Origin: Patescibacteria group bacterium
Lineage (GTDB): Bacteria; Patescibacteriota; Patescibacteriia; UBA9934; GWF2-40-263
Length of the DNA stretch: 64,000 bases
Assembly: GCA_041661745.1 (NCBI GenBank)
Contig: JBAZTR010000001.1
Coordinates: 186,471 to 250,470 of the forward strand
Reading direction: 5' to 3'
In this document: piece after piece, positions 583-60,077 of the stretch
How the letters are laid out: each line of letters begins with the position of its first letter
Numbering within the stretch: the first letter of the stretch is position 1
Position numbers and translations under genes: made by a program
The notes under the pieces: generated by a model
The model's database searches: none
Seen by the model: only the letters and a program-made list of their open reading frames with translations
Told to the model about the DNA's origin: nothing

Positions 583-957
583 CTAAATACCAATAACATC
601 AATCTCGCCGGTAACCTTACTTATCTTTACACAAAAACTGTAATTATTTTTATTTTCTTTATCAGTATAAGTGGCCGCAAAATAAGCCGTATAGGTTTGA
701 GCGTTATCTTCTTCGTTTTCTAATTCTAAATCAGCCGACTGCTCCTTAAAAGTTTTAATTTTCTCCGTAAGAATCAGGGCTTTGACTATTTCCCGCGGCG
801 CTACGGCTAAAGGTAAAACCGCGAGGCCTAAATGTTTCATTTCTCCTTTACCGACAGTTATGGCATCAACTTGATTAATTTCTGAAAAATATCCTTCGGT
901 GTTGATAGTTGGTTTCTCCTCATGACTTTCAAGATGCATGGTTTCAAGAGCACTCAT
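583..957 (-). CDS. hypothetical protein
   Basis: The ORF is 583..1017. The start was moved to the Met of MSALETMHLE to avoid overlapping the uppP 3' end. No recognisable motif. Confidence 0.35.
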   Translation of the reverse strand: MSALETMHLESHEEKPTINTEGYFSEINQVDAITVGKGEMKHLGLAVLPLAVAPREIVKALILTEKIKTFKEQSADLELENEEDNAQTYTAYFAATYTDKENKNNYSFCVKISKVTGEIDVIGI

Positions 958-959
958 AA

Positions 960-1772
960 TTAAATAAATATTAAAATGATTATACCGGCCAAAATAATTC
1001 GATAAATGACAAACCATTTATAACTGGTGGCTTTCATTATTTTTAAAAGAAATTTGATGGCTAAAAAGCCGGAAAGAAACGCTGCAATGAAAGCAATAGC
1101 CAAAGACAACCAATCAAACGATTCCCCACCGGAAATAATTTTTAATAAAGAAAATCCGCCGGCCGCGGCGATTGAAGGAATTCCCACCAGAAAAGAAAAT
1201 CGGGCCGCTGCTTCGCGCGTCAATCCGCCGAACAGACCGGCAGTAATAGTGATACCTGAACGCGAAGAACCGGGAATAAAAGCAATGATTTGTGATAAGC
1301 CTATCGCCAGTGAACGTTTCCATCCGATCTTAACCAAATCGCCTCTTGCCACGCCGTAGCCCGGCGAAGGCGGGTCTGCATTCTTCCTGACCAAAGCATC
1401 GGCCACCCACAAAACCACGCCCCAAAAGGCCAGCGAGGCCGCTATGGCGAGCGGCGAACGGAAAGTGGCCTCCAACCAGTCGCTGGCGAAAAAACCAACT
1501 GCCAGGACCGGTACGGTCGCGGCGACAATGAACCAGCCGAGGCGACCATTTTCGTTTCGTTTAAAAACTCCGAGGGTGATTGCTTTGACATCTACCCATA
1601 AGGCAACAATCACCGCGGCTAGTGTTGCCAAGTGAATTGTGGCATCAAAAGCCAACCCCGGATCAGTCCAGCCAAATAATTTAGGAATTAAAACAAGATG
1701 TCCAGAGCTGGAAACCGGCAAGAACTCAGTTAGGCCCTGAACAAAACCGAGGATGATGGATTGAATTATCAT
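960..1772 (-). CDS. uppP: undecaprenyl-diphosphatase (BacA/UppP)
   Basis: The 270-aa multi-pass membrane protein has an N-terminus GFVQGLTEFLPVSSSGHL and a later PGSSRSGITI motif, both characteristic of UppP. Confidence 0.85.
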   Translation of the reverse strand: MIIQSIILGFVQGLTEFLPVSSSGHLVLIPKLFGWTDPGLAFDATIHLATLAAVIVALWVDVKAITLGVFKRNENGRLGWFIVAATVPVLAVGFFASDWLEATFRSPLAIAASLAFWGVVLWVADALVRKNADPPSPGYGVARGDLVKIGWKRSLAIGLSQIIAFIPGSSRSGITITAGLFGGLTREAAARFSFLVGIPSIAAAGGFSLLKIISGGESFDWLSLAIAFIAAFLSGFLAIKFLLKIMKATSYKWFVIYRIILAGIIILIFI

Positions 1773-1774
1773 AG

Positions 1775-1810
1775 GCTATAGTATGTAGTAGGTAGTATGT
1801 AGGCAAAAGT
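1775..1810. repeat. family-1 heptad repeat (TATGTAGTAGGTAGTATGTAGGCAAAAG), left TIR of the four-helix-bundle cassette
   Basis: GTAG-based 7-mers ending in GGCAAAAG, inverted relative to the copy at 2163-2200. Related copies lie at 3945-3975, 32958-33035 and 55258-55326. Confidence 0.7.
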
Positions 1811-1811
1811 T

Positions 1812-2162
1812 TTATTTTGTCATTGTGTTAAGAATCTTCATAATTTCATTTAAAATATTTTCCACGGCGTCATAATCAGCTGCTTCACCAAAACCCAATC
1901 TTTTGGAAATAAAGGTTTGTGTCTCTAACTCCGCTCCGGAGCCAAAAGCAATTCTAAGAAAATGTTGGAATTCAACCGAACGACCGCGTCTCCTACCCTC
2001 GGCTATATTAGATGGAATAGAAACCGAGCAACGTCTCATTTGACTTGTTAAACCATAAATTTCCGAGCGAGGAAACTTTTCGGTTAATTTATAAACGAGA
2101 ATAACCAGTTCAACTGACTTTTGCCAGACAATCAAATTTTTATAAGGAAAATTCTCCAACAT
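1812..2162 (-). CDS. four-helix-bundle protein (TIGR02436; formerly 23S rRNA intervening-sequence protein)
   Basis: The 116-aa product contains WQKS..L...Y..T..FP..E.YGLTSQ.RR...SI..NIAEG and a C-terminal part that matches the family. Confidence 0.8.
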   Translation of the reverse strand: MLENFPYKNLIVWQKSVELVILVYKLTEKFPRSEIYGLTSQMRRCSVSIPSNIAEGRRRGRSVEFQHFLRIAFGSGAELETQTFISKRLGFGEAADYDAVENILNEIMKILNTMTK

Positions 2163-2200
2163 AGTTTTTGCCTACCTACTACATACTACCTACTCAAACC
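2163..2200. repeat. family-1 heptad repeat, right TIR of the four-helix-bundle cassette
   Basis: TTTTTGCCTACCTACTACATACTACCTACTC is the inverted complement of the 1775-1810 copy. Confidence 0.7.
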
Positions 2201-3940
2201 TCAAGAAACTTCTTCAAAATATTTGTTAAAACAATCAATACAATAAACAGTTTTTTCCGGAAAAGTTTTGTTAATCGAAACGATCATCTCTTTACCGCAC
2301 TTGTCGCATTTTCGGTCGACAAAAACCGCGCTGTTCGTCTCTTGAATCATTTCAGCCATACGACGAATAAAATGTTTATTAGGTGGGGCAACACGAAGTT
2401 TCTTGTATAAAGCAATTTCCGGTTTTAAAAATGTAAAATAACGACCAGTTACTTCGTCCTTTATTGGTACACCGCACCAACTGTCATCAATCTCATCAAT
2501 GGAATCAGGAATATCATTAGACGATCTGGCTTTGTTAATATCAACGCGGGTTTCACCAATAGCGTCAGCCGAAGATGGATCATAAATGGCCGCGCCGAGT
2601 TGTTTGGCTTCCTTTTCCGTCGACAACCAGTACATGGCCGAAGCTGATTGTAAAAAGTAAATCGGCGAAAAAGACAATGGAAAAAACTTTCCGTATTCCC
2701 CACGTTCAAGCATGGTCACCTTTAATTCATCAACTCTCTTCCAATACTCTTCCTCGGAATACGGTTTATTGAAAATGTGAAATTTTTTGTGTTGCAAGCC
2801 AACACAACCAAAACAATTTTCGCAATTTTCACACTCAAAACTATATTCCATGTTTTGACACTTGTGCATGGAATAACAAAAACGACAATTATTTGTTTGC
2901 GACAAAAAGACGGAGCTGTAACAATTGGCAATCCCGCTGGCACTGGTAACAAAAGCGCTGTCCAAGGCCTCGTTAGCCGTAAAAGAAGTGTGAAAAAGGT
3001 TAATTGGTCGCTCCACACAAGCGTAACAATAATGACAGTCACGGGCCTTAACTAAATATTCACCAATGGAATTTTCGTCAGAAAAATTCATGTTTACCGG
3101 CCAAACGATTTCTTTCCTCAAAAAATTATAATATTTATTTTTCCACTCTTCGGCCGCCGAACGTTTCCCAAGATCGATCTTTAAAATTTTTTCTTTATAT
3201 TCATTTTCGGTTAACGGCTGATTAAAGAAAAGATTTTTCTTGTGTTTGCGAATGGCCACACCAAAACAATCAACACAGTCGGGAGCAATAAAAGCAAAAA
3301 CCGAATTCATGGTGCCACGAGTATCGGAAACATATTGCGAACGAAAAACATTAAAGGCATCGTTGACATGGTAACTTTCCACGGCCTGCAAAACATTATG
3401 AATTTCCACCGAGCGTTCGGTGTTGGCGGCAAAAAGACAAAACATTGATTCCCGTGTCTTTCCATCAATCACAAAATAACTGTCGATATCGCCGAACGAA
3501 CCCAAGGCCATTGATTTTTCCGGCTCAATCAAATTATTAGCCGCCTTTAAAGGAACTTGAACCTGCATTTCGCGGAACTGCTCAAAGAAAGATTTTTTGG
3601 CGTCGTATTCCCGGCCCTCACTGGAAAAATCTTTGGTCAACCACTCTTGATCGGGCAAAACCTTCAAGCCACTAGATGGGTGAACATACGACAAAACCGC
3701 AGCCCCGGTGGCCGGATGTTTTTGCCACCACCACTGGAAACCATTCATGAAACCGCCGATAATTCTTTTTCGAGATAACGGTGAAATGTCGGAAGGCGGC
3801 ACATTGAATTTTTTATACCAGCCGATCTCTTCGTCGGTCATCAGCCATTTCTCGCCAGTGAGCGCACAGGTATGCTCGCCCGGCACGAGGCCGTCGAGAA
3901 TAACTTTTATTTTAGCATCGTAATTTGGAGTTTTCGACAT
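2201..3940 (-). CDS. large Cys-rich protein (about 24 Cys; CxxCFG repeats) with a C-terminal CxxC..YCxxC zinc ribbon; paralog of 3982..5718
   Basis: The 579-aa product shares its N-terminus MSKTPNYDAKIKVILDGL with the next gene. It has repeated C.NC.NCFG...F.IFNK..EEY modules and a C-terminus KCDKCGKEMIV...VYCIDCF. No signal peptide and no family recognised. Confidence 0.6.
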   Translation of the reverse strand: MSKTPNYDAKIKVILDGLVPGEHTCALTGEKWLMTDEEIGWYKKFNVPPSDISPLSRKRIIGGFMNGFQWWWQKHPATGAAVLSYVHPSSGLKVLPDQEWLTKDFSSEGREYDAKKSFFEQFREMQVQVPLKAANNLIEPEKSMALGSFGDIDSYFVIDGKTRESMFCLFAANTERSVEIHNVLQAVESYHVNDAFNVFRSQYVSDTRGTMNSVFAFIAPDCVDCFGVAIRKHKKNLFFNQPLTENEYKEKILKIDLGKRSAAEEWKNKYYNFLRKEIVWPVNMNFSDENSIGEYLVKARDCHYCYACVERPINLFHTSFTANEALDSAFVTSASGIANCYSSVFLSQTNNCRFCYSMHKCQNMEYSFECENCENCFGCVGLQHKKFHIFNKPYSEEEYWKRVDELKVTMLERGEYGKFFPLSFSPIYFLQSASAMYWLSTEKEAKQLGAAIYDPSSADAIGETRVDINKARSSNDIPDSIDEIDDSWCGVPIKDEVTGRYFTFLKPEIALYKKLRVAPPNKHFIRRMAEMIQETNSAVFVDRKCDKCGKEMIVSINKTFPEKTVYCIDCFNKYFEEVS

Positions 3941-3944
3941 ATGT

Positions 3945-3975
3945 TTTTTGCCTACATACTACCTACTACTGGCCT
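3945..3975. repeat. family-1 heptad repeat, single copy upstream of the Cys-rich gene
   Basis: TTGCCTACATACTACCTACTACT. On the minus strand it reads ...GTAGTATGTAGGCAAAAAACATATG into the start codon. The 1812..2162 gene has the same start context. Confidence 0.65.
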
Positions 3976-3981
3976 ACCGGC

Positions 3982-5718
3982 CTAATTATTCTCTTCGAGA
4001 TACTTTAAATAACAGGATTGACAATAAATCTTACGGTTCGGATACTGAGGACATTTTGAGACCAAAACTTCTTTCTGACATTCGTAACACTGTTGTTTTT
4101 CTAGTGAACATATTTGTCCGCTGGCAGCCAAAGTATTAAGACGATGAATAAAATGTTCGGCTGGCGGAGCGATGCGTTTGGCCCGATAATAATCTAGTTC
4201 GGGTTTCAAAAAACTAAAAGTACGCTTAGCTTGTTCGTCATAAATCGGAACTCCTATCCAATCATCACCCAAGTCATCAATGGAATCAGGAATGTCTTTT
4301 AAACTTCTTGGTTCGTTTTTTAGACGTTCAGTGCCGGTTGCGCCTTCGGCATTAGGATCAAAAAACAAACCCCCGATCTTTTTTAGTTCTTCGTCAGTGG
4401 CTCCACAATAAATCGTGGCCCCGCCCTCGGGCACATAAGTCGAAGAAAGTTCCGGCGGTAAATAGTGTCCATACTCGCCACGTTCGAGCATAGCACACTT
4501 AAGTTCATCAAGGGTTTTCCAATATTCCTCTTCTTCGTACTGTTTATTTAAAATACAGAAACGCTTATTTTTCAAACCAATACAGCCAAAACAATCTCGA
4601 CAATCAGAAGACATGAGACAGTATTCGCAATTATCTAACCTGAAAGAACGATAACAAAATTTACTCTTGTTAGAATTTGGCGAGGAGACACACATGTAAA
4701 CCTCGGAATTATCGACCAGTCCCCAACCATAAGCGTTACCTTGATTATTACCGTATATCCAGGCGCTTCGCCAATTATCAACTGGATTATCACCGGAGGA
4801 AAAACATTCAGTACAACGAACAGCATTACTCAAATAATCGCCGGACGATTGCTCGGTTGAGACATTAAAATTTTCCGGCCAAATACCTTCGTTAAGCAAA
4901 AGCTCGTTAAATTTCTTTTGCCATTTTTCAACGACGCTTCTTTTGCCCAAATCAATTTCAGCTAAACGAGCCTCATATCCTTCTTTGGTCAGTTGTTTGT
5001 TAAAAAATAAGTATTCGGCGTTACGACGGTTAGTCGCACCAAAACAATTATTACAATTTCGACATTCAAACAAAAAGTTGGAATTTAAACAATCCAGCGA
5101 TTCGTGAACATAACGACAATTGTGGAGACGTTGGCTGTGAGTAATATGGTGTGAATCGGTGATGTTAAAAGCCAACCAGATCAACGAGGAATCGGCGATA
5201 CCAAAAGCCCCACCTGAAAAAAAAGATCTCTCCGACCTGCAGGCAAAAGTGAAATAACTGTCTTGGTCACCCATAGACATAAGCGCAATCGAATTTTTCG
5301 GCTCAACCCGATTAAAAGTCGCCAGAAGAGGCACGCGAAGTTCAAGTTTTCTTAATTGTTTAAAAAAGGGATCTGGAATTTCGAGGGTTTCAAAAATATT
5401 GGAAAAATCCTTGGTGTGCCACTCGACATCCGGCAAAACACGAATACCCGAAGCCGGATGATGAAAACTCAAGACCGGCTGACCGGTTTCAAAATGTTTG
5501 TTCCACCAAAACTGATAAGCACAATCATAATAAGCCATTTGTTTCCAAACAGTGTTAGGCGAAACATTGTGTGGTGGAACCATGAACTTTTTGTAAAGTT
5601 CGATTTCTTGAATCGGCATTTTCCATTTCTCGCCAGTCAAAACACAAGTCTGCTCGCCGGGGGTGAGTCCGTCGAGAATAACTTTTATTTTAGCGTCAAA
5701 ATTAGGAGTTTTACTCAT
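3982..5718 (-). CDS. large Cys-rich protein, tandem paralog of 2201..3940, with a C-terminal zinc ribbon
   Basis: The 578-aa product begins MSKTPNFDAKIKVILDGLTPGE, has C.NC.NCFG-type repeats and ends CYECQKEVLV...IYCQSCY. Confidence 0.6.
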   Translation of the reverse strand: MSKTPNFDAKIKVILDGLTPGEQTCVLTGEKWKMPIQEIELYKKFMVPPHNVSPNTVWKQMAYYDCAYQFWWNKHFETGQPVLSFHHPASGIRVLPDVEWHTKDFSNIFETLEIPDPFFKQLRKLELRVPLLATFNRVEPKNSIALMSMGDQDSYFTFACRSERSFFSGGAFGIADSSLIWLAFNITDSHHITHSQRLHNCRYVHESLDCLNSNFLFECRNCNNCFGATNRRNAEYLFFNKQLTKEGYEARLAEIDLGKRSVVEKWQKKFNELLLNEGIWPENFNVSTEQSSGDYLSNAVRCTECFSSGDNPVDNWRSAWIYGNNQGNAYGWGLVDNSEVYMCVSSPNSNKSKFCYRSFRLDNCEYCLMSSDCRDCFGCIGLKNKRFCILNKQYEEEEYWKTLDELKCAMLERGEYGHYLPPELSSTYVPEGGATIYCGATDEELKKIGGLFFDPNAEGATGTERLKNEPRSLKDIPDSIDDLGDDWIGVPIYDEQAKRTFSFLKPELDYYRAKRIAPPAEHFIHRLNTLAASGQICSLEKQQCYECQKEVLVSKCPQYPNRKIYCQSCYLKYLEENN

Positions 5719-5723
5719 ATCAA

Positions 5724-5748
5724 AAGGAGGCGCTTTTGGCGCCTCTTT
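5724..5748 (-). terminator. hairpin (AGGCGC TTTTG GCGCCT) between the ATPase gene and the Cys-rich gene
   Basis: An 8-bp GC stem lies directly downstream of the 5752 stop on the minus strand. The U-run is short (4), so this is a weak or partial terminator. Confidence 0.35.
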
Positions 5749-5751
5749 ACT

Positions 5752-7176
5752 TTATACGACTATTTCGCTTTCTTCCACCCTGGCCGCCGGGGCGTTGATT
5801 TCTTTATCGCCCTGCTCCAGCTCGGCCGTAACCTCGGCCCTGGTTTTGGCATAATTTTGCCGCGATTCCTCAACAATGTCTTGAGAAAAACTTTCGTGAT
5901 GCGACGGCGTGACCTCAAGAACATCAGCCGAGAACGGATCGAAACGTTTGCCATCAATGGTCATTTTAACATAAATCTCGCGCGCCCCGAGGTTAATGAT
6001 ATCGTGCATGTCAAAAATCGGGGCCAACTCATCTTTCAAAATCTTGGCATCATCGGCGCCAATTTGAAAAGTAATAACCGAAGCAACGTTACCAAAAAGC
6101 GAAGCTTTAAGACTATCGGAAAGCTGACTAAGATTTTGGTTGGCCACGGTCACGGCAATACCAAACTTACGCGATTCGGAAAGAAGATTTTCAAAAGTTT
6201 TAGTGGCAATATTTTGAAACTCATCAACATATAAATAAAACGGCTGACGCAGATGCTCTGGTAAACTAATACGTTTCATGGCCGACTGTTTTATTTTAGT
6301 AATAAGGGTGGCTCCGAAAAAAGCCGAAACATCATCACCAAGCAAACCCTTGGACAAATTAACCAAAACGATTTTGCGTTCCTGCATGAAATGATAAAAA
6401 TCGACTTTATTTTCTTTTTGGCCAAAAATGTTGCGCATCAACGGATCGGCCAGCAACTGCCCGAGTTTATTTAAAAGCGGCGAAACCGCTTCGGCATCAT
6501 ATCGTTGTGACCATTCAGGAAACTCGATCGCCCAAAAGCGACGAACCACACTGTCTTTTATAAACTCAATGACTTTACTGCGAAAGCGACCACTCGAAAG
6601 AAGCGAAACCATGCCGTTAATGGTACCGGCCGGATAATCAATCATGGCCAAGGTGGTCATGCGGAGCAGGTGCTCAACGCGTGGGGTCCAATCCGAACCG
6701 AATTGTTTTTTAAAAATTTCGATGAGCTCGTTGGTAACCGGAAAACGATCGGCTTCGACAACATTGGCAATTGGGTTAAAAGAAATGGGAAATTCGCGAT
6801 CACTGGGATTAATTAGCACCACATCATCAAGACGTTCTTCGGGAATAAAATCCATGATGCTTTGAACCAAATCACCGTGCGGATCAATAATACACACGCC
6901 GTGACCAAAAAAAACATCGGAACGAATCAACAGTTCCAACAATTTCGTTTTCCCCACCCCGCTTTTGCCAATAACGTACATGTGGCGGGTGCGATCTTTA
7001 CGTTTAATACCAAAAATCAAACGCTTGGCGGAAATTCCTTGACTAAAGTTGGATCGACCAAATAAAGAAATTTCTTCGGCCGGAGTATTATCTTTAGTTG
7101 GTAAAGCCGCCGGCGGTTCGTGCCGACGAGCAACAATTTGGTCTTCACCTTTCGGGTATTCCATATTAATTACCAC
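5752..7176 (-). CDS. P-loop NTPase of the TraG/TraD/VirD4 (type IV coupling-protein, DUF87-like) superfamily, copy 2, no TM segments
   Basis: The 474-aa product has Walker A GKSGVGKTKLLE, then IDPHGD, Walker B-like YLYVDEFQN and VTVANQNLSQL. It is paralogous to 7170..9077. Confidence 0.5.
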   Translation of the reverse strand: MVINMEYPKGEDQIVARRHEPPAALPTKDNTPAEEISLFGRSNFSQGISAKRLIFGIKRKDRTRHMYVIGKSGVGKTKLLELLIRSDVFFGHGVCIIDPHGDLVQSIMDFIPEERLDDVVLINPSDREFPISFNPIANVVEADRFPVTNELIEIFKKQFGSDWTPRVEHLLRMTTLAMIDYPAGTINGMVSLLSSGRFRSKVIEFIKDSVVRRFWAIEFPEWSQRYDAEAVSPLLNKLGQLLADPLMRNIFGQKENKVDFYHFMQERKIVLVNLSKGLLGDDVSAFFGATLITKIKQSAMKRISLPEHLRQPFYLYVDEFQNIATKTFENLLSESRKFGIAVTVANQNLSQLSDSLKASLFGNVASVITFQIGADDAKILKDELAPIFDMHDIINLGAREIYVKMTIDGKRFDPFSADVLEVTPSHHESFSQDIVEESRQNYAKTRAEVTAELEQGDKEINAPAARVEESEIVV

Positions 7177-31115: not shown

Positions 31116-31964
31116 GAAAAAATTTTCGGCGTTCCTTGTGGTCATCTCTATTACCTCTTCCAAGCTTTTTCCGTGAAGCTCGGCCAACTTTCGTGCCACT
31201 TCGATGACATATCTCGGCTCATTGCGCTTGCCACGGTAAGGTGGCGGCGCCAAATACGGCGCATCGGTTTCAATTAAAACCTTTTCCAGTGGCACAGCTT
31301 TGGCCACCCGCTGTACATTCGAGAGTTCGCCTTCACTTTTTTTTGGTGGAAAGGTAACAATACCGGTAAAAGAAATCAAAAAACCAAGATTAAAATAATC
31401 ATTGGCTTGGTCCAAAGTGCCGGAAAAACAATGAACCACACCACGTCGGGACAGCTTCCCTGCCTCGACATATTCGCGTAAAAGAGCGACTTGCTCTTCG
31501 TGAGCATTGCGTGAATGAATAACCAACGGCAAATTTAATTCATCAGCCAAATCGAACTGGGCCCGCAACGCAGTCTTCTGTTTTTCTTTTACCTCGTCGA
31601 TGGAGATATCTTCCGGTAAATGATAAAAATCCAAACCGCATTCACCAATGGCTATAACTTTTTTACTTTTAGCGAGCTCACGATAAAAAGCCGGATCAAA
31701 TTCTTCGCTTCTGGTTTTAATTGTAGCTGTCGGGATTTCATCATCGTCCTCAAACGACTGCTTGGAAGTGTGCGAAGGATGTAAACCGATGGTAGCCCAA
31801 ACCCCATCGTATTTTTCGGCCACCTCCACCCCGCGGCGTGAGGTATCTTGTTGTGTTCCAACAGTAATCATAAAGACGTTCTCGGAAAGAGAACGTTTTA
31901 TAACTTCATCCATGTCTTCTTTGTAAGCGTTGAAATGGATGTGACAGTGGGTGTCGATCAACAT
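31095..31964 (-). CDS. TatD-family metal-dependent hydrolase
   Basis: MLIDTHCHIH at the N-terminus and later HCFSG/ETDAPYL motifs match TatD. The start was moved to MLIDTH. The upstream 14 codons of the ORF track lie inside the repeat element. Confidence 0.8.
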   Translation of the reverse strand: MLIDTHCHIHFNAYKEDMDEVIKRSLSENVFMITVGTQQDTSRRGVEVAEKYDGVWATIGLHPSHTSKQSFEDDDEIPTATIKTRSEEFDPAFYRELAKSKKVIAIGECGLDFYHLPEDISIDEVKEKQKTALRAQFDLADELNLPLVIHSRNAHEEQVALLREYVEAGKLSRRGVVHCFSGTLDQANDYFNLGFLISFTGIVTFPPKKSEGELSNVQRVAKAVPLEKVLIETDAPYLAPPPYRGKRNEPRYVIEVARKLAELHGKSLEEVIEMTTRNAENFFKIKITE

Positions 31965-31967
31965 AAA

Positions 31968-32462
31968 GCCCTCACCCCCTTTCCCCCTCCCCCGTATACA
32001 AAACAAAAGATTATACGAAGGAGGGGGAGTAAAACTATTTAATTAATTTTTTTATTTTTTCTAGAACTAAATTCAAATCTTCAAAAATTTCTTTATTAGT
32101 AAATCTAACCACCTTATACCCAAATCCTTCTAATCGTTCTGTTCTCTCGGCGTCGCCTTCTTTCGAAACGGTCTCGTTATGGATTTCGCCATCTATTTCT
32201 ATTATCAGTCTTTTAGTTCGACAGCAGAAATCGGCGATATAATTTTCGATTCCGTATTGCCTGGAAAATTTTATTCCGAGATTATTGTCTCGCAAGTGTT
32301 CCCATAAAATTTTTTCAGTCTCAGTTTGATTAACTCTAAGAAACTGTCGGGTATTTTTTTGTTTAACTTTATTAACCAAACATTTATTCCGCATAATTCT
32401 TTCCCCTCCTTCGTATGCTTATTGCCTTCCGGCATACGGGGGAGGGGTTAGGGGTGAGGGCC
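31968..32462. mobile_element. MITE-like cassette: DUF559 gene bounded by roughly 65-bp G-rich imperfect terminal inverted repeats
   Basis: The left end is GCCCTCACCCCCTTTCCCCCTCCCCCGTATAC...TATACGAAGGAGGGGGAG. The right end reverse-complements to GGCCCTCACCCCTAACCCCTCCCCCGTATGC...CATACGAAGGAGGGGA. The element exactly fills the tatD-cvpA spacer. Confidence 0.6.
32035..32394 (-). CDS. DUF559 (Vsr/restriction-endonuclease-like fold) protein
   Basis: The 119-aa product has ...ILW..LR.NNLGIKFSRQYGIENYIADFCCRTKRLIIEIDGEIH...R...L...GYKVVRF, typical of DUF559. It is paralogous to 35257..35640. Confidence 0.75.
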   Translation of the reverse strand: MRNKCLVNKVKQKNTRQFLRVNQTETEKILWEHLRDNNLGIKFSRQYGIENYIADFCCRTKRLIIEIDGEIHNETVSKEGDAERTERLEGFGYKVVRFTNKEIFEDLNLVLEKIKKLIK

Positions 32463-32948
32463 TTAAATCCAAGGAATCATCGTCTGGATCGCTGAAGTGA
32501 CAGAATTTATATAAGAAACAACTTGTGAACCGCTAAACCAACCACCGATCAAAGTTGGAAACATGAGTTGTGCAAAATAAACGGCCGCTCCCACCAAAAC
32601 CAAACCTTCAATCAAACCCAAAATTCCACCAAGTAATTTATTTACAAAACCAACAAACGGCAGCCAACGCAGAAAACCAAATAATCTGTCGACAATCCAA
32701 AAAACAAAACCAACCAAACGCTGAGTGACAATAAGAATAAGAATGAAAAGGACAATTCCGGCCACGGTTGTATTGTTGGCAAATAAGAAACCTAGATAAT
32801 CAATCGCTAGCCCGGTATATTGACTGGCAACGATTGCTCCAACAATAAGGCCGACCCCATTACCAAGGATTCGGATAAAACCGAACCACAAGCCGTAAAA
32901 GGCAAAGGCTCCGACAAGGACGAGAAGGATTATGTCGACAAGAGACAT
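32463..32948 (-). CDS. CvpA-family (colicin V production-like) membrane protein
   Basis: 161-aa product with four TM helices. The N-terminus DIILLVLVGAFAFYGLWFGFIR is typical of CvpA. Confidence 0.65.
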   Translation of the reverse strand: MSLVDIILLVLVGAFAFYGLWFGFIRILGNGVGLIVGAIVASQYTGLAIDYLGFLFANNTTVAGIVLFILILIVTQRLVGFVFWIVDRLFGFLRWLPFVGFVNKLLGGILGLIEGLVLVGAAVYFAQLMFPTLIGGWFSGSQVVSYINSVTSAIQTMIPWI

Positions 32949-32957
32949 ATTTTAGGC

Positions 32958-33035
32958 TCAAGTATGTAGTGGGTAGTATGTAGGCAAAAGTTCTAATTAG
33001 AACTCCTGCCTACCTACTACATACTACCTACTAAA
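32958..33035. repeat. family-1 heptad repeats as an inverted pair without cargo (about 75-nt hairpin) between cvpA and metG
   Basis: AGTATGTAGTGGGTAGTATGTAGGCAAAAG, then a palindromic spacer GTTCTAATTAGAAC, then CTCCTGCCTACCTACTACATACTACCTACT. Confidence 0.7.
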
Positions 33036-33037
33036 AG

Positions 33038-34546
33038 CTAATTATTTTTAGGAAAAAGCGGCTCGCCTTTGGCGATTTTGTGGCCCGGAGTCAGTTCACC
33101 CCACACCCAAGCTGATTCAAACGATTGATTAAATTCTTTCGGGGCTTCAAGACCGAGTTGAACAAAAAGTTTCTCGGCTGTCTCGGGCATAAATGGAACC
33201 AACATCCAAGCAATGTGGCGCAGGGTTTCGAGCAAAACGTAAAGGGTGTCGTTCAACATTTTCTTTTCCTCCATTTTGGCCAACTGCCACGGTTGTTGTT
33301 GCTCAACAAATTGATTGGCTTGACGAATCAAATTCCAAATAATATCCAAGGCATCACTCAAACGATTTTCTTCAAGAGCTAAATGGTAGGCTTGCCATGC
33401 CCCGGCAAGAAACCCGTCAGCTTTTTCCGGAACAACACCGTCGGTGTATTTCTCAGTCATGGCCAGAACGCGATTTACCAAGTTGCCAAATTCGTTGGCT
33501 AACTCGTTATCATAACGGGCCACCAAACGGCTTTCCGAAAAATCACCATCCCCACCAAACGGAATTTCACGAAAAAGAAAATAACGAAGGACGTCGTTGC
33601 CGTATTTTTGGGTCATTTCAATTGGGTCAACAACATTACCAATGGACTTAGACATTTTTTGTCCATCAATAGTGAAAAAACCATGAGCAAAAACCTGCTT
33701 GGGCAATGGTAAACCGGCTGACATTAACATGGCCGGCCACAAGGCACAGTGAAATTTAATAATATCTTTACCAACCAAATGCAAATCAACCGGCCACCAT
33801 TTTTCAAAAGCCGTCGGATCATCAGCATAACCCACGCCGGAAAGATAATTGATCAGGGCATCGAACCAAACGTAAATGCGATGTTTTTCATCGCCAGGCA
33901 CGGAAATGCCCCACTCCACGGTTTCGCGAGAAATGGAAATATCCGTCATGAAGTTACGAATATAACTCAAGACTTCGTTCCGTTTGGCCTCGGGCTGAAT
34001 AAAATCAGGATGTTCACCAATGTAAGCCAACAAATCATCACGATATTTTGTTAAACGGAAAAAATAATTATTTTCTTTCAGAGCTGTTGGAGCTTTTTGA
34101 TGATCGGGACACAAACCGTTAACCAAATCAGTTTCATTTTTAAAAGCCTCACAGCCTTGGCAATACAAACCTTCATAAGAACCAAGATAAATATCACCTT
34201 TGGCTTCGACGGCTTTCCAAAACTTTTCCACGGACTGGTGATGAACTTTTTCCGTGGTGCGGATAAAACGATTATGCGTTAAACCCAACGAATCAAAAGT
34301 TCGCTCCCACAACGCCGCCATTTCGTCCAAATAACCTTGAACATCGGCGGCGCGACCAACCTTGGCCGCGGCCTCAACGTTTTTTTGGCTGTTTTCATCA
34401 GTGCCGGTTTGAAACATTACTTCCTCGCCCAGCATGCGGTGATAACGGGCCAAAATATCCGCGGCAATTGCCGTGTAAGCGTGGCCAATCGACGGCTTAC
34501 CGTTGATGTAATAAATCGGGGTGGTTATGTAAAACTTTTTGGGCAT
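33038..34546 (-). CDS. metG: methionine--tRNA ligase
   Basis: The 502-aa product has the HIGH motif PSIGHAYT, KMSKS, and the zinc knuckle CPDH...CQGC. Confidence 0.95.
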   Translation of the reverse strand: MPKKFYITTPIYYINGKPSIGHAYTAIAADILARYHRMLGEEVMFQTGTDENSQKNVEAAAKVGRAADVQGYLDEMAALWERTFDSLGLTHNRFIRTTEKVHHQSVEKFWKAVEAKGDIYLGSYEGLYCQGCEAFKNETDLVNGLCPDHQKAPTALKENNYFFRLTKYRDDLLAYIGEHPDFIQPEAKRNEVLSYIRNFMTDISISRETVEWGISVPGDEKHRIYVWFDALINYLSGVGYADDPTAFEKWWPVDLHLVGKDIIKFHCALWPAMLMSAGLPLPKQVFAHGFFTIDGQKMSKSIGNVVDPIEMTQKYGNDVLRYFLFREIPFGGDGDFSESRLVARYDNELANEFGNLVNRVLAMTEKYTDGVVPEKADGFLAGAWQAYHLALEENRLSDALDIIWNLIRQANQFVEQQQPWQLAKMEEKKMLNDTLYVLLETLRHIAWMLVPFMPETAEKLFVQLGLEAPKEFNQSFESAWVWGELTPGHKIAKGEPLFPKNN

Positions 34547-35725: not shown

Positions 35726-36610
35726 TCAATGATTAGCCGCCCAACAAAACCAATAAGCCGTGGTCAGGGCCACTTCGTTTTCGTTCTTGTCATATCCTTT
35801 CACAGTTTCCAATTCCTCATCCCAAACAAAATCAACTTCCGTGCCACTAATAGTTTTGGCACTTTTAATATTATCTAGCGGAAAAACCTCCGAACCGTAA
35901 CTGTAGACAATGGTTTTGGCCGGATAACTCGAATCGTATTTATTCAACGGATACCAAACCGCCGGCGTGGCTGCGTAATTGCCGTATGGATTATGCGAAT
36001 AATCGCGAGCTGAACCGGTTTCGCGCGACAACACATAACCATTGGGAAAATTTTCTTTGAACGATTGCCAGGTCATGACATAAGAAGGAATGGCCGAAAG
36101 GTTATCGCCGGTCTCGGGAAGAGTTTGACCGTCAAACGAACGCCAAAGTAAATCTGTTTCTTCGGCCGTAAACAACATGGAGTTGTTATAAATTTTTCCG
36201 GAATTTTTAAAAAGCCTTTCGCTTTCGAAAACGGCCGCACTGCCACACAACGGATCATAAGAAACTAAAATCGACGAACCGTTCCAAACATCATTAACCA
36301 AATTGTGCCAAACCAAAATCTGAAAAGGATAAAACCTCGCCTGTCCCCTGCCCCCTATCCCCTCCAAAACAAGACCAAGCCCTTCATTTAACAAATAAGT
36401 GTCGGCCAACGGAACTGATTCGAAATCAGAATCATTAAGAGCAGGACGCGAGTCGTTGTCTGAACCTGTATCTATTATCGAATCTTCCAATCCTGGCTGA
36501 ACCAGATTTCGTGGCGGCAAGTGATTAAAATACTCAAAAACAAAAAAGCCGACAAAAATCGCTAAAATAACAAAAATGATCAATTTTCTCTTGTTTAAGA
36601 ATTCCTTCAC
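35726..36610 (-). CDS. hypothetical protein (DUF3179-like?), N-terminal TM
   Basis: 294-aa product. The family assignment is by vague recollection only. An internal G-tract encodes GIGGRGQARF. Confidence 0.4.
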   Translation of the reverse strand: MKEFLNKRKLIIFVILAIFVGFFVFEYFNHLPPRNLVQPGLEDSIIDTGSDNDSRPALNDSDFESVPLADTYLLNEGLGLVLEGIGGRGQARFYPFQILVWHNLVNDVWNGSSILVSYDPLCGSAAVFESERLFKNSGKIYNNSMLFTAEETDLLWRSFDGQTLPETGDNLSAIPSYVMTWQSFKENFPNGYVLSRETGSARDYSHNPYGNYAATPAVWYPLNKYDSSYPAKTIVYSYGSEVFPLDNIKSAKTISGTEVDFVWDEELETVKGYDKNENEVALTTAYWFCWAANH

Positions 36611-36617
36611 ACAAAAA

Positions 36618-36671
36618 TAGAATATCAGAAAAAAATAATACCGGCCACCTGGGGTTGAACCAGATGGCCGG
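36618..36671 (-). terminator. rho-independent terminator of the high-GC IPT/TIG gene
   Basis: On the minus strand CCGGCCATCTGGTTCAACCCCAGGTGGCCGG forms a hairpin, followed by TATTATTTTTTTTCT. Confidence 0.65.
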
Positions 36672-36680
36672 AGAGGTGCC

Positions 36681-37757
36681 CTAGCGGTGGCCGGGGGCGG
36701 CGACGATCCCGTTGATCGGAGCGGGCGGAGCGAGTCCCTCCTCGATCGAGTTGGCCACCATAGTAAGTCTGCCGGCGATCAAGGCAGCAGCCAGGAGGAT
36801 CGCCAGGACCACGCTCCCGATGACCGCCGGAACCACCCACGGCTTCATGGGGGCCGGCGGGACGGCCGGGGCAGGAGGCTCGGGCGGCGGGGGCGGCTTG
36901 GCCATGTGCGGCGTCAGCTGGTCGACCACCTCCTTAACGGCCTTGCCGACCATCTCGCCATTCCGGATCATCAGGTCGCCGACGATCTTCGGATCAACGC
37001 CGGGCGGGATCGCGATGACCGGAGCGGCGACTCGCGAGGCCGAGCCCGCGGGCGGGGTCGAGCTGCGCGGAGGAGGCGACGGCGGCGGGGCGGCGACCTT
37101 GGTCTTGAACGTGAAGGCGTCCGCCAGGAAGACGGACTCGCCACCGTTGTTCTTGACCTCGACGCTCGCCACTCCGACCGGGAAGGCGGGAGTCTTGGCC
37201 AGGATCTTGGTGTCGGACACGAACCGGATGTCCGTGCCGACGACCTTGGTCGCGGGCGTGAAGAAGAACACCTGGCAGTCGGCCGTGAAGCCGCTGCCGG
37301 TCACCTCGACCTCGAGGCCACCAGTCTCCTCGCCCTCGGTGGGCGTGATGGAGGTGACGGCGAGAACGGGAGGCGGTGGGGGCGGAGGCGGCGGTGGGCT
37401 GCTGATCGCGACGACCCAGCCGACCGCTCGGGCGTGGGCGAGCGCCCGATCCTTGAAGTCGGGCCGCCAGTCCCGGATGGCCTCGAGCTCGGTCATGATC
37501 TCGGCCTCGGAGCGGTTGGCCGAAGCCACGACCAGCTCCTCGACCTTGCAGATGATGTCGATGACCGTGGTGTCATCGTTGCCCAGCGCGGCCGCTTTCG
37601 TGAACTTGTCCGCGACATCGACCGAGACGTTGTCCCACTCGGTGAACTTCCAGGCCATGAGCGAGCTGAAGTCGCCGGCCGGGCTGGGGGCAGACCAGAT
37701 GGCCACGGCCGCATGGAACGCGGCCTGCTGTTCTGGGGTGAGGGTAGTGATGTCCAT
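36681..37757 (-). CDS. high-GC surface-type protein with an IPT/TIG-like Ig domain, poly-Pro linkers and a C-terminal TM anchor
   Basis: The 358-aa product has PPPPPPPPPP; an Ig-like segment VTSITPTEGEETGGLEVEVTGSGF...VFFF...IRFVSDTKILAKTP...VEVKNNGG..SV..D.FTF; and a C-terminal hydrophobic stretch AVIGSVVLAILLAAALIAG. GGAGA lies before the ATG. The long + strand ORFs here are Arg-rich antisense artefacts. Confidence 0.6.
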   Translation of the reverse strand: MDITTLTPEQQAAFHAAVAIWSAPSPAGDFSSLMAWKFTEWDNVSVDVADKFTKAAALGNDDTTVIDIICKVEELVVASANRSEAEIMTELEAIRDWRPDFKDRALAHARAVGWVVAISSPPPPPPPPPPVLAVTSITPTEGEETGGLEVEVTGSGFTADCQVFFFTPATKVVGTDIRFVSDTKILAKTPAFPVGVASVEVKNNGGESVFLADAFTFKTKVAAPPPSPPPRSSTPPAGSASRVAAPVIAIPPGVDPKIVGDLMIRNGEMVGKAVKEVVDQLTPHMAKPPPPPEPPAPAVPPAPMKPWVVPAVIGSVVLAILLAAALIAGRLTMVANSIEEGLAPPAPINGIVAAPGHR

Positions 37758-37908
37758 GGTATCTCCGGGGTCAGGGAGGGTGGGAGAAGGTGCATCAAAC
37801 AGCCGAAAAACCGGCCGAATGAACAGAGAAAAATATCACATTTTCCAAAAAAAGTCAAGAATCTTATCAAAAACAAAAATTTATCAAAAAAAGAATTTCC
37901 TTCTAATC

Positions 37909-37938
37909 TTGACAAAAACCAAAAAATGGGCTATTTTA
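37909..37938 (+). promoter_or_regulatory. sigma70-like promoter (TTGACA, 17 nt spacer, TATTTT) in the AT-rich divergent spacer, driving the 38065 gene
   Basis: cTTGACAaaaaccaaaaaatgggcTATTTTact. A strong SD GGGAGGA lies 6 nt before the ATG at 38065. Confidence 0.45.
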
Positions 37939-38064
37939 CTTAGCTCGAATTGAGCACAAGGTAGTTAGCTCCCTAAACAATTCACCCAATTCGTTCGTAA
38001 GTTTTTTTGTCGTAATTCTTCGCCAGAACGCTGAACACACCCGAACCCCGAAAGGGAGGACAAA

Positions 38065-39222
38065 ATGAGCGAGATCAACATCCTGGATCTCTGGGCAGCA
38101 ACCGGCATCATGGAGGCGCTCCTGCCCCTGATCCGAGAGGTCGACAAAAGGTTCGTCCCCGAGGACCACAACCTGACCTACAACCAGGTCGAGTGGAGCC
38201 GTCACGGCGACGGATGCATCGGAAGCATCATGCTCGTCGACGAGGACGGCAAGGATCAGGAGATCGCCTGCTACCCGATCTCGACCAGGTGGAACGTGGA
38301 CATCACCACCCCCCACATGGTACTGGCCTTCCAGGTCACCAGAAGCAACAACGAACCCGAAACCGAGGACGACCTGAGCGACGGTCGCTGGTACGCCATT
38401 CCGGTCGGTCTGGCACCAACCTCGATCCGGACCAAAGTCGAGAGGGCCTTCCAGGAAGTCGGCCTCCTCAACGGTCGTCTCCCCGGCCTCAAGCCGCACG
38501 AGTGGGACGACTCTCCGGAACGCCGGTTCAACCTGGTCTTCCAGCGCCGGCGCGGCGACATGATCGCCTGGTACCAGGGGAAGGTCTGCGTCCTGGTCGA
38601 AGGTTCGCCAATCCCCAAGCCCGGCAAGGAGGTCATCTGCGAAGTGGTGACCGAGCGCCTGAGCAAGGTCGTCGTCCGCTGGACGGGCATGACCGTCGAG
38701 CAGGCCAGGAAGAGGATCGACGAACAGCGACGCCTGGCCGGTCTCCGAAGCAGCATCCGCCGGGCCGCGCGCGTGGAGCGACCCGAGCTCAAGGATCCCG
38801 TGGCCGCCATGGGGCTCGAGCCGGACAAGCTGAGCGGCGGACGCCTCAACAGCGCCTACCGCCGGCTGCGCCAGCAGGTCCCGACGACCGAGGAGGAGGC
38901 CGGCGCCAACCCGCTGGCCAAGGCCATGGTCGAAGTCGGCCTGCCCTTCCAGGCCGACAACCTAGACTGGCCGGTGTTCTACGCCGAGTACCTCGACCGG
39001 GCCGACCGGGCCGCGGTCCAGGTCCTCAAGGACAAGCGCACGAAGGAGCGCGAGGAGGCCGAACGCACGGCCACCCCGCCGCCCGTCGAGCCCGCCACCG
39101 AAGGCGAGGGCCACGAGGAAGCGGTCGCCGACCTCGACACCGCCGACGAAGACCTCCTGGTCGAGGAGTCGACCGACGACGGCTCCGCCCAGCCCCGCGA
39201 GGAGGGCGCGAACGCGAAGTAG
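38065..39222 (+). CDS. high-GC hypothetical protein (385 aa, acidic C-terminal tail)
   Basis: A long ORF with a strong RBS and its own promoter and terminator. No motif recognised. The C-terminus is Glu/Asp-rich. Confidence 0.55.
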   Translation: MSEINILDLWAATGIMEALLPLIREVDKRFVPEDHNLTYNQVEWSRHGDGCIGSIMLVDEDGKDQEIACYPISTRWNVDITTPHMVLAFQVTRSNNEPETEDDLSDGRWYAIPVGLAPTSIRTKVERAFQEVGLLNGRLPGLKPHEWDDSPERRFNLVFQRRRGDMIAWYQGKVCVLVEGSPIPKPGKEVICEVVTERLSKVVVRWTGMTVEQARKRIDEQRRLAGLRSSIRRAARVERPELKDPVAAMGLEPDKLSGGRLNSAYRRLRQQVPTTEEEAGANPLAKAMVEVGLPFQADNLDWPVFYAEYLDRADRAAVQVLKDKRTKEREEAERTATPPPVEPATEGEGHEEAVADLDTADEDLLVEESTDDGSAQPREEGANAK

Positions 39223-39254
39223 ACGGACTTCCCCGTCAACTTCACGTCCCACAC

Positions 39255-39293
39255 GGCCGCTGTGCACCTAGTGCATGGCGGCCTTTTTCTTTT
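39255..39293 (+). terminator. rho-independent terminator (GGCCGC..GCGGCC hairpin plus TTTTTCTTTT)
   Basis: A GC hairpin lies 33 nt after the 39222 stop, followed by a T-run. Confidence 0.6.
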
Positions 39294-39363
39294 ACAAAAA
39301 TTTATGACTATCGACCGTGACTGTGGTATAATATTTAAAACAAAAGAAAATAAAAAAACTTTT

Positions 39364-55257: not shown

Positions 55258-55326
55258 GTTAGTAGTATGTAGTATGTAGTGGGTAGGCAATAGATTTAAT
55301 CGGGAACTTTTGCCTACATACTACCT
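55258..55326. repeat. family-1 heptad repeats as an inverted pair without cargo
   Basis: AGTAGTATGTAGTATGTAGTGGGTAGGCAA, then a spacer, then TTGCCTACATACTACCTACTAC. Confidence 0.7.
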
Positions 55327-55327
55327 A

Positions 55328-59992: not shown

Positions 59993-60077
59993 TAGGACAC
60001 TAGGAGGGTAGGAGACTAGGAAGCTAGGCAGATGTAAGTTCAAGACTAGTTTCCTAGCCTCCTAGTTTCCTAGCCTC
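59993..60077. repeat. family-2 heptad repeats (CTAGGAGG/CTAGGAAACTAG) as an inverted pair; the right arm encodes the last 7 codons of uvrB
   Basis: CTAGGAGGGTAGGAGACTAGGAAGCTAGGCAG ... ACTAGTTTCCTAGCCTCCTAGTTTCCTAGCCTCC. The UvrB C-terminus KEARKLGG is read from the repeat. Confidence 0.65.

Follow-up and report, generated by a model that had tools for sequence, protein, structure and literature searches.

Intervening sequences (IVSs) of bacterial rRNA are the closest described counterpart of the element studied here, a cassette at positions 1773-2201 of a 64-kb stretch of Patescibacteria DNA (hereafter the window), in which a gene for a small four-helix-bundle (FHB) protein lies between two inverted arrays of a 7-nt repeat. 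In the IVSs of Leptospira, Coxiella burnetii, Xanthomonas and others, a gene of the same family (S23p, PF05635) occupies the loop of a stem whose two strands are terminal inverted repeats (IRs) of about 28-36 bp, and the IVS replaces the tip of helix 9, 25 or 45. The 28-bp terminal stem of the Coxiella 23S IVS is cut by RNase III, 2-3 tandem GACAGAT heptamers, their number depending on the strain, directly precede the S23p open reading frame (ORF), and this ORF is decaying and probably untranslated (PMC4990558). Excision by RNase III has been demonstrated for the IVSs of Coxiella, Leptospira and Salmonella, and the origin and function of IVSs were called unclear in 2016 (PMC4990558). Versions without an ORF also exist, namely the Salmonella-type IVS and rRNA insertions in the candidate phyla radiation (PMC11270868). 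A second system that resembles the arms of our cassette comes from cyanobacteria. The short tandemly repeated repetitive (STRR) sequences, which Mazel et al. are said to have described in 1990, are reportedly tandem intergenic 7-nt units with a lineage-specific sequence; to our knowledge they have never been linked to PF05635 genes or to a fixed chirality. Our preferred reading, to which we give a probability of about 60%, is that the cassette is an IVS-type palindromic element outside rRNA, with a selected FHB gene in the loop of a stem of about 30 bp made of inverted GTAGTRK arrays. Proteins identical to the FHB, BacA and CvpA products are recorded for a metagenome-assembled genome (MAG) labelled 'Patescibacteria group bacterium', and the window is part of a 203-kb metagenome contig. 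The closest named relatives of the BacA and CvpA proteins of the host belong to Candidatus Uhrbacteria, and the host is a Patescibacteria MAG, probably of that group.

The coding strand of the region is the minus strand throughout, and the neighbours of the cassette are a gene for a Cys-rich protein and uppP (Table 1). Upstream of the FHB start (2162), the 5' arm occupies the entire spacer as far as the stop codon of the Cys-rich gene, a TGA that ends at 2201, and the 3' arm runs from the FHB stop codon TAA right up to the ATG of uppP/BacA (1772). The IR arms 1773-1808 and 2166-2201 are 36 nt long, 83% complementary and 357 nt apart, which confirms the first-pass annotation of an FHB gene in a cassette with inverted heptad arms. 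In the minimum-free-energy (MFE) fold of the whole 446-nt cassette, calculated for the coding strand, both arms pair with each other (z -3.6). The heptad unit of the arms is GTAGTRK. The start-codon contexts of the FHB gene (GTAGGCAAAAACTATG) and of the Cys-rich gene 2201-3940 (GTAGGCAAAAAACATATG) are the same, as had been noticed before.

The cargo was correctly assigned to the rRNA-IVS protein family at the outset: the product matches PF05635 (23S_rRNA_IVP) with E 2.2e-36 and 124.7 bits (cut-off 33.8) and TIGR02436 with 114.9 bits (cut-off 24). Residues 6-105 also match PDB 2GSC, the solved pentameric four-helix bundle XCC0516, at the sequence level (E 1.6e-25). The family motif has been given as GxxRxxxSxxxNxxE (PMC3936711; Lin et al. 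on XCC0516). In our protein it reads R44-x3-S48-x3-N52-x2-E55, within ...QMRRCSVSIPSNIAEG..., with Q41 in place of the leading G; the positions of R44, S48, N52 and E55 are invariant or nearly so in an alignment of 28 FHB proteins (A1). No other FHB gene is present in the window. Among four syntenic orthologues dN/dS ranges from 0.04 to 0.10, with dS saturated (1.1 to >2.5); the gene is functional, old at the site between the Cys-rich gene and uppP, and under strong purifying selection. The four-helix-bundle fold is homologous to that of Avd, a small basic protein of diversity-generating retroelements (DGRs) that binds nucleic acid and reverse transcriptase (RT), with scores of E 7e-4 for PF22296 (bAvd) and 21 bits for NF033474 (cut-off 80). 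Because of this homology, binding of the FHB protein to the arms is conceivable, and we consider it a reasonable guess.

Like an rRNA IVS, the cassette has a PF05635 gene in the loop of a stem of terminal IRs. The heptamers before the ORF have their parallel in Coxiella, where the unit is GACAGAT (AG core, G>C), while here GTAGGTA GTATGTA GTAGGTA stands before the ATG. In contrast to an IVS, the cassette lies outside rRNA (an Rfam scan of the window returned two tRNAs and no rRNA), its gene is intact and selected where the Coxiella ORF is decaying, and excision by RNase III, demonstrated for IVSs, would be a prediction here. The cassette shares all architectural features of an IVS save the location in rRNA and is IVS-like, not an IVS.

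Heptad palindromes form a genome-specific family to which the cassette belongs and whose other copies in the window carry no gene. With up to 3 mismatches allowed, the motif GTAGTATGTAGGCAAAAG occurs 7 times in the window against 0.04 expected, a number reached by 0 of 100 shuffles, and a regular-expression census of (GTAGNNN) arrays of at least 2 units returned exactly 7, each with a terminal GTAGGCA. These seven arms comprise the two of the cassette, those of two ORF-less hairpins and the remaining one of a half-deleted hairpin. The ORF-less pair had already been recorded as the same arms without cargo; the hairpin between the methionyl-tRNA synthetase (MetRS) and CvpA genes folds with -44 kcal/mol (z -7.8) and the one beside the UvrC-like gene with -29.4 kcal/mol (z -6.1). 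A presumed solo copy of the repeat between two Cys-rich paralogues is indeed present. Its description needs refinement, since the equivalent spacers of a relative, L004, contain complete GTAG hairpins (405-540 and 2248-2362), and the lone arm is best read as a hairpin that has lost its loop and 3' arm, which accounts for its place before a start codon better than a promoter or ribosome-binding role of the repeat would. All GTAG copies of the window are intergenic between co-directional genes and leave no more than a few bases to the upstream stop and no more than about 12 to the next start. Most heptad copies have no ORF and lie in ordinary spacers of housekeeping genes (metG-like, uvrC-like, uvrA-like, uppP), so that the earlier idea of repeats packaging accessory genes was too strong. 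The ORF-less hairpins are followed by ...GAGCCUAAAAUAUG and ...CUAACCUAAAAUAAAUAUG, without a U run, and were therefore rejected as intrinsic terminators; a canonical U-tract terminator is found in the same genome at 5745-5727 (minus strand). A terminator scan of 900-6000 listed none of the arms of that region, and a consensus scan for promoters and terminators gave nothing specific at the arms.

To compare orthologous sites, loci of relatives were obtained via BacA and CvpA homologues. The spacer between the Cys-rich gene and uppP shows five states among them. L004 carries an FHB gene (86% identity) in GTAG arms with a heptad number unlike that of the window; L115 has an FHB gene with both arms of GAGGC type; in L005 the FHB gene stands between a GAGGC-type 5' arm and a CTAC-type 3' arm, which are unable to pair; L116 has no ORF and only a 95-nt hairpin of TACGGAT heptads; and L114 is empty, with a spacer of 8 nt. 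Between MetRS and CvpA, the site of an ORF-less GTAG hairpin in the window, L120 has a 126-aa FHB gene in 9-mer AAAGGCAnn arms. ORF-less hairpins of other families lie directly upstream of CvpA in L118, where further genes separate MetRS and CvpA, and directly after MetRS in L117. The spacer downstream of CvpA holds a DUF559 gene in G/C-tract arms in the window, an FHB gene in GGGGnTA arms in L118 and 17 nt in L119. Gain, loss and change of cargo have thus taken place at orthologous spacers. The first-pass annotation had reasoned that fixed regulatory palindromes would occupy the same positions in relatives with unvarying cargo; cargo, arm family and presence or absence all differ.

The arms themselves also turn over. 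Two hybrid elements (L005 2640-3100 and L004 4085-4212) have non-pairing arms from different heptad families, which suggests that arms are replaced one at a time. Sub-terminal arm bases are genome-specific and common to the cassette and the ORF-less copies, with ACTTTTGCCTAC in the window and ATTTCTGCCTAC in L004. The arms are recognisably GTAG in two lineages despite saturated synonymous divergence and have been replaced wholesale in others, which argues for maintenance by copying between elements and not by slow point-mutational drift.

The association of FHB genes with inverted heptads extends well beyond this genome. A search profile built from alignment A1 yielded 80 metagenome loci at 46-64% identity. 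Counting only FHB genes with enough flanking sequence and requiring an IR score of at least 14, we found flanking IRs at 36 of 67 FHB genes (54%), compared with 7 of 288 other ORFs of the same contigs (2.4%; Fisher p 7e-24), gene calling in the control sets being crude. The seven IR-flanked control ORFs are ordinary genes (a response regulator, a CheB-like gene and others) between complete hairpins of one family, or lie antisense to FHB genes, and were rejected as cassettes; on some contigs every spacer has a hairpin of a single family, so that housekeeping genes appear 'flanked'. Self-identity of the flanks of FHB loci is highest at lag 7 (0.46 vs 0.36, other lags about 0.30), and among 77 arms with a clear period the repeat period is 7 in 57, 8 in 16 and 9 in 4. 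The unit differs from locus to locus (AGTTCGT, TAGTGGT, CAGTGGT, TAGCTTn, ATAGGGA, AGGCACA and others), yet both arms of a locus match. The sole sequence feature that the units have in common is AG, mostly TAG, once per unit: AG is enriched 1.73-fold with a modal AG-to-AG spacing of 7 (201 cases), T precedes AG in 56% of units, and the dinucleotides TG and GA are depleted (0.61 and 0.59). An explanation of the TAG core as stop codons in all three frames was rejected, as only 24 of 53 5' arms qualify; with AG enriched and TG and GA depleted, the motif is TAG-specific and not a generic stop signal. Of 16 ORF-less periodic hairpins found elsewhere on contigs with an FHB cassette, 9 belong to the same heptad family as that cassette, as against 18 of 816 cross-contig pairs (p 9e-11).

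We also checked finished plasmids of cultured cyanobacteria, in order to exclude assembly artefacts. An FHB gene lies in inverted (GGGAGTA)n between two ribonucleotide reductase (RNR) subunit genes of a Nostoc edaphicum plasmid (L127), in (AGGTGAC)n between cas6 and cas4 of an Anabaena sp. 90 plasmid (L128), and in GGAGATA-type arms between cmr2 and cmr3 of a Picosynechococcus PCC 7003 plasmid (L130); comparable heptamer arms surround FHB genes in plasmids of Geminocystis, Leptolyngbya and Stanieria. The arrays of the window resemble STRRs in being tandem, lineage-specific 7-nt units between genes, and the inverse flanking of FHB genes by (GGGAGTA)n and (AGGTGAC)n brings the two closer still, although our host is a Patescibacterium and not a cyanobacterium. 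Plasmids alpha and gamma of Nostoc PCC 7120 (L121, L122) carry the same FHB protein, WP_010994075.1; on gamma an ISL3 transposase gene stands immediately upstream of the FHB gene, the downstream CTGCCCT arm is kept and a matching upstream arm was not found. In Pseudanabaena galeata pPg_01 (L124, 45877-46997) the FHB gene again lies between cas6 and cas4, with arrays that are direct and not inverted, (AAAAGCT)x14 upstream and (AAAAGCC)x9 downstream. The position of 23S_rRNA_IVP genes in such operons (cmr2/cmr3, cas6/cas4) has been read as a functional association with CRISPR-Cas (PMC3936711). These genes belong to PF05635 and are wedged between operon genes, as in our cassette, but the copies of Anabaena sp. 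90 and Picosynechococcus have heptad arms; because heptad IRs surround them, the published 'cas association' may reflect the insertion of a cassette into an operon.

Heptad palindromes are in turn a broader phenomenon than the FHB gene, which is strongly associated with them. In 185,579 species genomes the exact GTAG motif GTAGTRKGTAGTRKGTAGGC was found at 27 loci of many phyla (L006-L032), often as hairpins, and even with a profile hidden Markov model an FHB gene was detected in the loop at only one of the 27 (L027, Omnitrophota). It is this count that makes the hairpins the more widespread of the two, and the idea that GTAG arrays always accompany FHB genes was rejected. Some of the 27 loci have long pure arrays, for example (GTAGTGG)x15 in L019 (Planctomycetaceae) and (GTAGTAG)x12 in L020, often at contig ends. 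Assemblies seem to break at such arrays, and counts from MAGs probably understate how frequent they are.

The arms have a fixed chirality. Of 53 FHB cassettes scored, one was a tie; among the 52 informative ones, 48 have more G than C in the 5' arm (p 1e-10), and in an unbiased scan of all collected sequence for hairpins with loops of at most 80 nt, period-7/8 hairpins have a G-rich 5' arm in a ratio of 38:5, compared with 89:66 for non-periodic ones (Fisher p 1e-4). An inverted repeat is identical on both strands; the bias therefore does not come from the direction of the gene, of transcription or of replication. It is a property of the element itself, in which the G-rich, TAG-bearing arm comes first on whichever strand is folded or transcribed. 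As candidate causes we consider that a leading unpaired C-rich RNA arm, on which Rho would load, is avoided, that a protein recognises the periodic TAG, or that arms arise when both 3' ends of a break receive a G-rich unit.

Several further elements of the window were recovered, and the expectation of several heptad families in this genome proved right: besides GTAG there are a CTAGGAGG family (59993-60072), a G-tract family at a DUF559 gene and an AAGGG type, heptad or near-heptad, at a thioredoxin-like gene. The hairpin of the second family directly precedes the start codon of the UvrA-like gene and is of the same element class as the GTAG hairpins. The DUF559 gene, between CvpA and TatD, encodes a Vsr-like endonuclease fold (PF04480, 116 bits); its inner arms obey the chirality rule and the outer arms break it. 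In L115 another DUF559 gene (301-744) lies within GGGAGGA arrays, and heptad palindromes may habitually carry DUF559 as a second type of cargo. The region around the thioredoxin-like gene (PF00085, 25.2 bits), whose stop codon falls inside the 3' arm, is less certain and possibly a third cassette or two decayed hairpins. A sequence similar to the AAGGG-type arms also occurs at 41009-41045 within a glycerol-kinase-like ORF (40185-41402), where it encodes LKGVKALKGTKGF; it could be a chance likeness or an arm absorbed into coding sequence. The UvrC-like ORF (55328-56668, minus strand) ends at a stop codon supplied by the element, the first TAG of the heptad 5' arm (55328-55330). The Cys-rich proteins (about 578 aa; 579 aa for the product of 2201-3940) are tandem paralogues without a Pfam or NCBIfam match, present in 2 copies in the window (2201-5718) and in up to 4 in relatives (L004 1-5938), downstream of TraG/VirD4-like ATPase genes and with GTAG hairpins between the copies. 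Finally, G+C content reaches 56-57% at window positions 36000-40000, compared with about 44% for the genome; this block encodes an IPT/TIG-domain protein (36681-37757, minus strand) and contains DUF3179 and SIMPL genes, besides long ORFs that overlap on the two strands.

Table 1. Positions of the cassette and of the other heptad-repeat elements in the window.
Feature	Position	Strand	Description
FHB gene, 116 aa ('S23p', rRNA-IVS protein family)	1812-2162	-	Profile matches to PF05635 and TIGR02436
Cassette 5' arm	2163-2201	-	AGGTTTGA GTAGGTA GTATGTA GTAGGTA GGCAAAAAC, then ATG; inverted repeat, heptad array 2169-2189(-)
Cassette 3' arm	1773-1811	-	AACTTTTGCC TACATAC TACCTAC TACATAC TATAGCCT; inverted repeat and closing stem in MFE fold
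(GTAGNNN) arrays	1785-1805(+), 2169-2189(-), 3949-3969(-), 32966-32986(+), 33007-33027(-), 55262-55289(+), 55311-55331(-)		Regular-expression census
Half hairpin, GTAG family, 5' arm only	3945-3975	-	Between two Cys-rich paralogues, directly before start codon 3940
ORF-less GTAG hairpin	32952-33041	-	Fills spacer from MetRS stop (33038) to CvpA-family start (32948)
ORF-less GTAG hairpin	55258-55335	-	Between UvrC-like gene and gene of 80-aa membrane protein
ORF-less hairpin, second family	59993-60072	-	GGAGGCTAGGAAACTAG units, TAG core, G-rich 5' arm; from unbiased hairpin scan
DUF559 cassette	31964-32465	-	DUF559 gene 32035-32394(-) in G/C-tract heptad arms; inner arms ACGAAGGAGGGG / CCCCCTCCTTCGT flank gene, outer arms 32434-32465 / 31964-31997; inverted-repeat pairs
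Thioredoxin-like candidate cassette	42259-42829	-	Gene 42283-42747(-); AAGGG-type 9-10-nt repeat arms, G-rich 5' arm 42784-42829, C-rich 3' arm 42259-42305; inverted-repeat pair

Because the genes form a co-directional array, the hairpins have no U tract and an ordinary terminator is found elsewhere, co-transcription combined with a stem and RNase III is the most economical model for the cassette. RNase III cuts long perfect or near-perfect RNA duplexes. The cassette would be transcribed together with the surrounding co-directional genes, and its arms would anneal in the transcript to form a long duplex, which RNase III would cut as it does in 23S rRNA IVSs. Cleavage would set the FHB message free or insulate it and would part the cistrons on either side; the ORF-less copies would be processing or insulating stems of the same intercistronic type. 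The FHB start codon is separated from the stem by 5 nt, and that of uppP is immediately adjacent to it; translation of both genes should thus respond to cleavage or melting. The arrays would grow and shrink by slippage, and copies would be homogenised or swapped by ectopic conversion; the ORF-less hairpins may be relatives of the FHB cassette that have lost their cargo or are non-autonomous. We regard the structural and evolutionary part of this explanation as well supported and the RNase III step, argued by analogy, as plausible.

A number of points weigh against this explanation. Cleavage by RNase III would be an extrapolation from rRNA IVSs, and the two hybrid cassettes persist with non-complementary arms, so the stem is not strictly required for retention of the gene. 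At some loci each side of the FHB gene has a complete hairpin instead of a single stem enclosing the gene. Three population samples of the same species (L001-L003) have identical arms, two of these contigs ending inside the 3' arm, and ongoing movement is thereby unsupported. Mismatches in the 53 cassette stems show no excess of G:U over A:C (50 vs 56, p 0.63), most of them (167) being transversions from out-of-register heptad variants. Selection on RNA pairing thus lacks independent support, and copying at the DNA level could keep the arms complementary; complementarity may be a by-product of the way in which arms are made or copied as DNA. Co-orientation of FHB genes with their neighbours, examined as a sign of dependence on host transcription, is 82% and does not differ significantly from the baseline of 73% (p 0.22). 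Finally, the 80 metagenome loci were drawn with a Patescibacteria-type FHB profile and are a biased, non-random sample of the family.

Among the alternatives, fixed regulation by the host is unlikely but the one that we take most seriously. The hairpins would be intercistronic terminators, attenuators or mRNA-stabilising stems, comparable to the repetitive extragenic palindromic (REP) sequences and bacterial interspersed mosaic elements (BIMEs) of enterobacteria, and the FHB gene an ordinary resident between half-sites, with nothing selfish or mobile about it. The placement of every copy exactly between a stop and the next start of co-directional genes agrees with this, as do the strong purifying selection on an FHB gene syntenic in four genomes, the identical arms of the three population samples and the filling of many spacers by one hairpin family on some contigs. 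Close relatives, however, have no more than 8 nt or 17 nt in the same spacers, which makes the hairpins dispensable; orthologous spacers hold heptad families that are unrelated or cargo that differs (FHB vs DUF559); a U tract is missing although a canonical terminator is nearby; and local regulation gives no account of a gene-in-loop architecture that recurs across phyla and in rRNA. Of the described intergenic palindromes, the Correia/nemis elements of Neisseria form stems that RNase III cleaves in mRNA, Correia elements duplicate a TA target, and REP doublets (REPINs) depend on the REP-associated tyrosine transposase RAYT. Together with REP/BIME and the enterobacterial repetitive intergenic consensus (ERIC), they share with our elements that they are short, multi-copy intergenic palindromes, co-transcribed with flanking genes as ours would be, but they have a conserved sequence instead of tandem heptads and no gene in the loop, and neither RAYT nor target duplications were seen at the cassette. 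Families of REPINs evolve within a genome (PMC3116915). A bolder interpretation, which we consider unlikely and somewhat less probable than fixed regulation, is that heptad palindromes with a (T)AG core and fixed chirality are one self-propagating or self-renewing class of elements in many phyla, with the PF05635 protein as an element-encoded factor. From this class would derive rRNA IVSs with and without an ORF, STRR arrays and 'cas-associated' FHB genes alike, and its arms would be made or maintained by a dedicated DNA-level mechanism (such as repeat addition or TAG-guided conversion) and not by selection on RNA pairing.

The first-pass annotation had taken the arms for terminal inverted repeats (TIRs) of a miniature inverted-repeat transposable element (MITE). 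Cassette and hairpins would then be mobilised in trans by an enzyme acting on hairpin DNA (RAYT, an IS200/IS605-type Y1 transposase or another nuclease), with the arms as TIRs and the ORF-less copies as MITE- or REPIN-like derivatives. Terminal inverted repeats and dispersed copies (seven arms in 64 kb) are indeed what such elements have, and genome-specific arms that extend to the sub-terminal bases, heptad families common within contigs (9/16 vs 18/816), presence or absence at orthologous sites and a nuclease-fold gene (DUF559) as alternative cargo all fit. Yet a comparison of filled with empty sites reveals no direct repeats on the two sides of the element, and no transposase is found among the genes called within +/-10 kb of the cassette, the interval also used for integrases and RT, with no wider genome search. 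The canonical MITE was rejected on these two grounds. Arm length is moreover quantised in whole heptads and the unit differs by locus, unlike conserved TIRs, and the hybrid arms favour conversion over cut-and-paste, all of which leaves trans-mobilisation rather improbable. Integron attC cassettes likewise combine a single promoterless gene with imperfect hairpin palindromes and variable cargo at each site, but there the palindrome follows the gene, while here its halves lie on both sides, among housekeeping neighbours; no integrase was called in that interval and no RYYYAAC/GTTRRRY core sites were seen on reading the arms, without a motif search, and this option was rejected. TIGR-Tas arrays have 36-nt units and a Nop-domain protein and were dropped on that account, as was CRISPR, of which no repeat-spacer array was seen. 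The arms might also be made in place, a polymerase or RT, either templated or prone to slippage, adding copies of one short G-rich unit to both 3' ends at a break or hairpin tip; the ends would then be rejoined directly, which gives an ORF-less hairpin, or around a captured gene, with the Avd-like FHB protein as cofactor. By construction this would yield inverted symmetry, a fixed short period and a unit specific to the locus or genome; it would account for the G-rich strand running 5'-3' inward on both strands (48:4, 38:5), the lack of a G:U bias fits a DNA-level origin, and the FHB protein is homologous to the RT cofactor Avd. We nevertheless think this quite improbable: neither an RT nor an unusual polymerase was seen in the same interval, the Avd model scores far below its cut-off, an FHB gene is missing near most GTAG-type arrays of other phyla, the chirality could arise in other ways, for example by avoidance of an unpaired C-rich 5' arm in RNA, and we know of no precedent in bacteria. 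Heptanucleotide repeats upstream of hmw1A and hmw2A in Haemophilus influenzae tune expression by their copy number. Contingency repeats of this kind, acting by phase variation on the FHB or downstream gene, would explain why heptad number differs between the window and L004 and between Coxiella strains and why the arrays abut start codons, and an RNase III-targeted 5'-untranslated element is reported to take part in phase variation dependent on simple sequence repeats in H. influenzae (PMC12721329). Identical arms in three independent samples of a species, arrays beside housekeeping genes and complementary pairs that phase variation does not require make it very improbable. Least probable by far, at a level close to negligible, is an Avd component or remnant of a DGR, and this candidate was dropped: apart from the weak bAvd similarity (E 7e-4; 21 bits where 80 are needed), the protein strongly matches the non-DGR family TIGR02436, no RT was called nearby, and general repeat scans, none specific for template and variable repeats, gave only the heptad arms and short low-complexity pairs.

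Individually, the gene family, the rRNA IVSs, the Coxiella heptamers and the STRRs are already known. In full-text searches of the literature we found no link of PF05635 genes in general to flanking heptad repeats, with the reservation that an earlier cyanobacterial description (Elhai et al. 2008) may exist. Nor did we find an account of the rule that FHB genes lie in inverted heptads, including outside rRNA, of the TAG core, of the chirality, of families shared between gene-bearing and gene-less copies, or of the turnover at individual sites, which is no proof of novelty. The elements follow simple, testable rules, namely a period of 7, a TAG core, a G-rich 5' arm and genome-specific families that span gene-bearing and gene-less copies, and they lend themselves to experiments in organisms that can be cultivated, for example Anabaena sp. 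90, Picosynechococcus PCC 7003 and Nostoc. FHB genes within cas operons should not be taken as functional CRISPR components. The same combination of gene family and heptad-stem architecture occurs in Coxiella rRNA, in spacers within operons of an ultra-small Patescibacterium and, among cultured cyanobacteria, in cas and RNR operons; the elements turn over at orthologous sites. The cassette and the comparisons built on it thereby link three puzzles, the origin of IVSs and the reason why some have an S23p gene, the nature of the heptamers of cyanobacterial STRRs, and the role of the very abundant TIGR02436 proteins.

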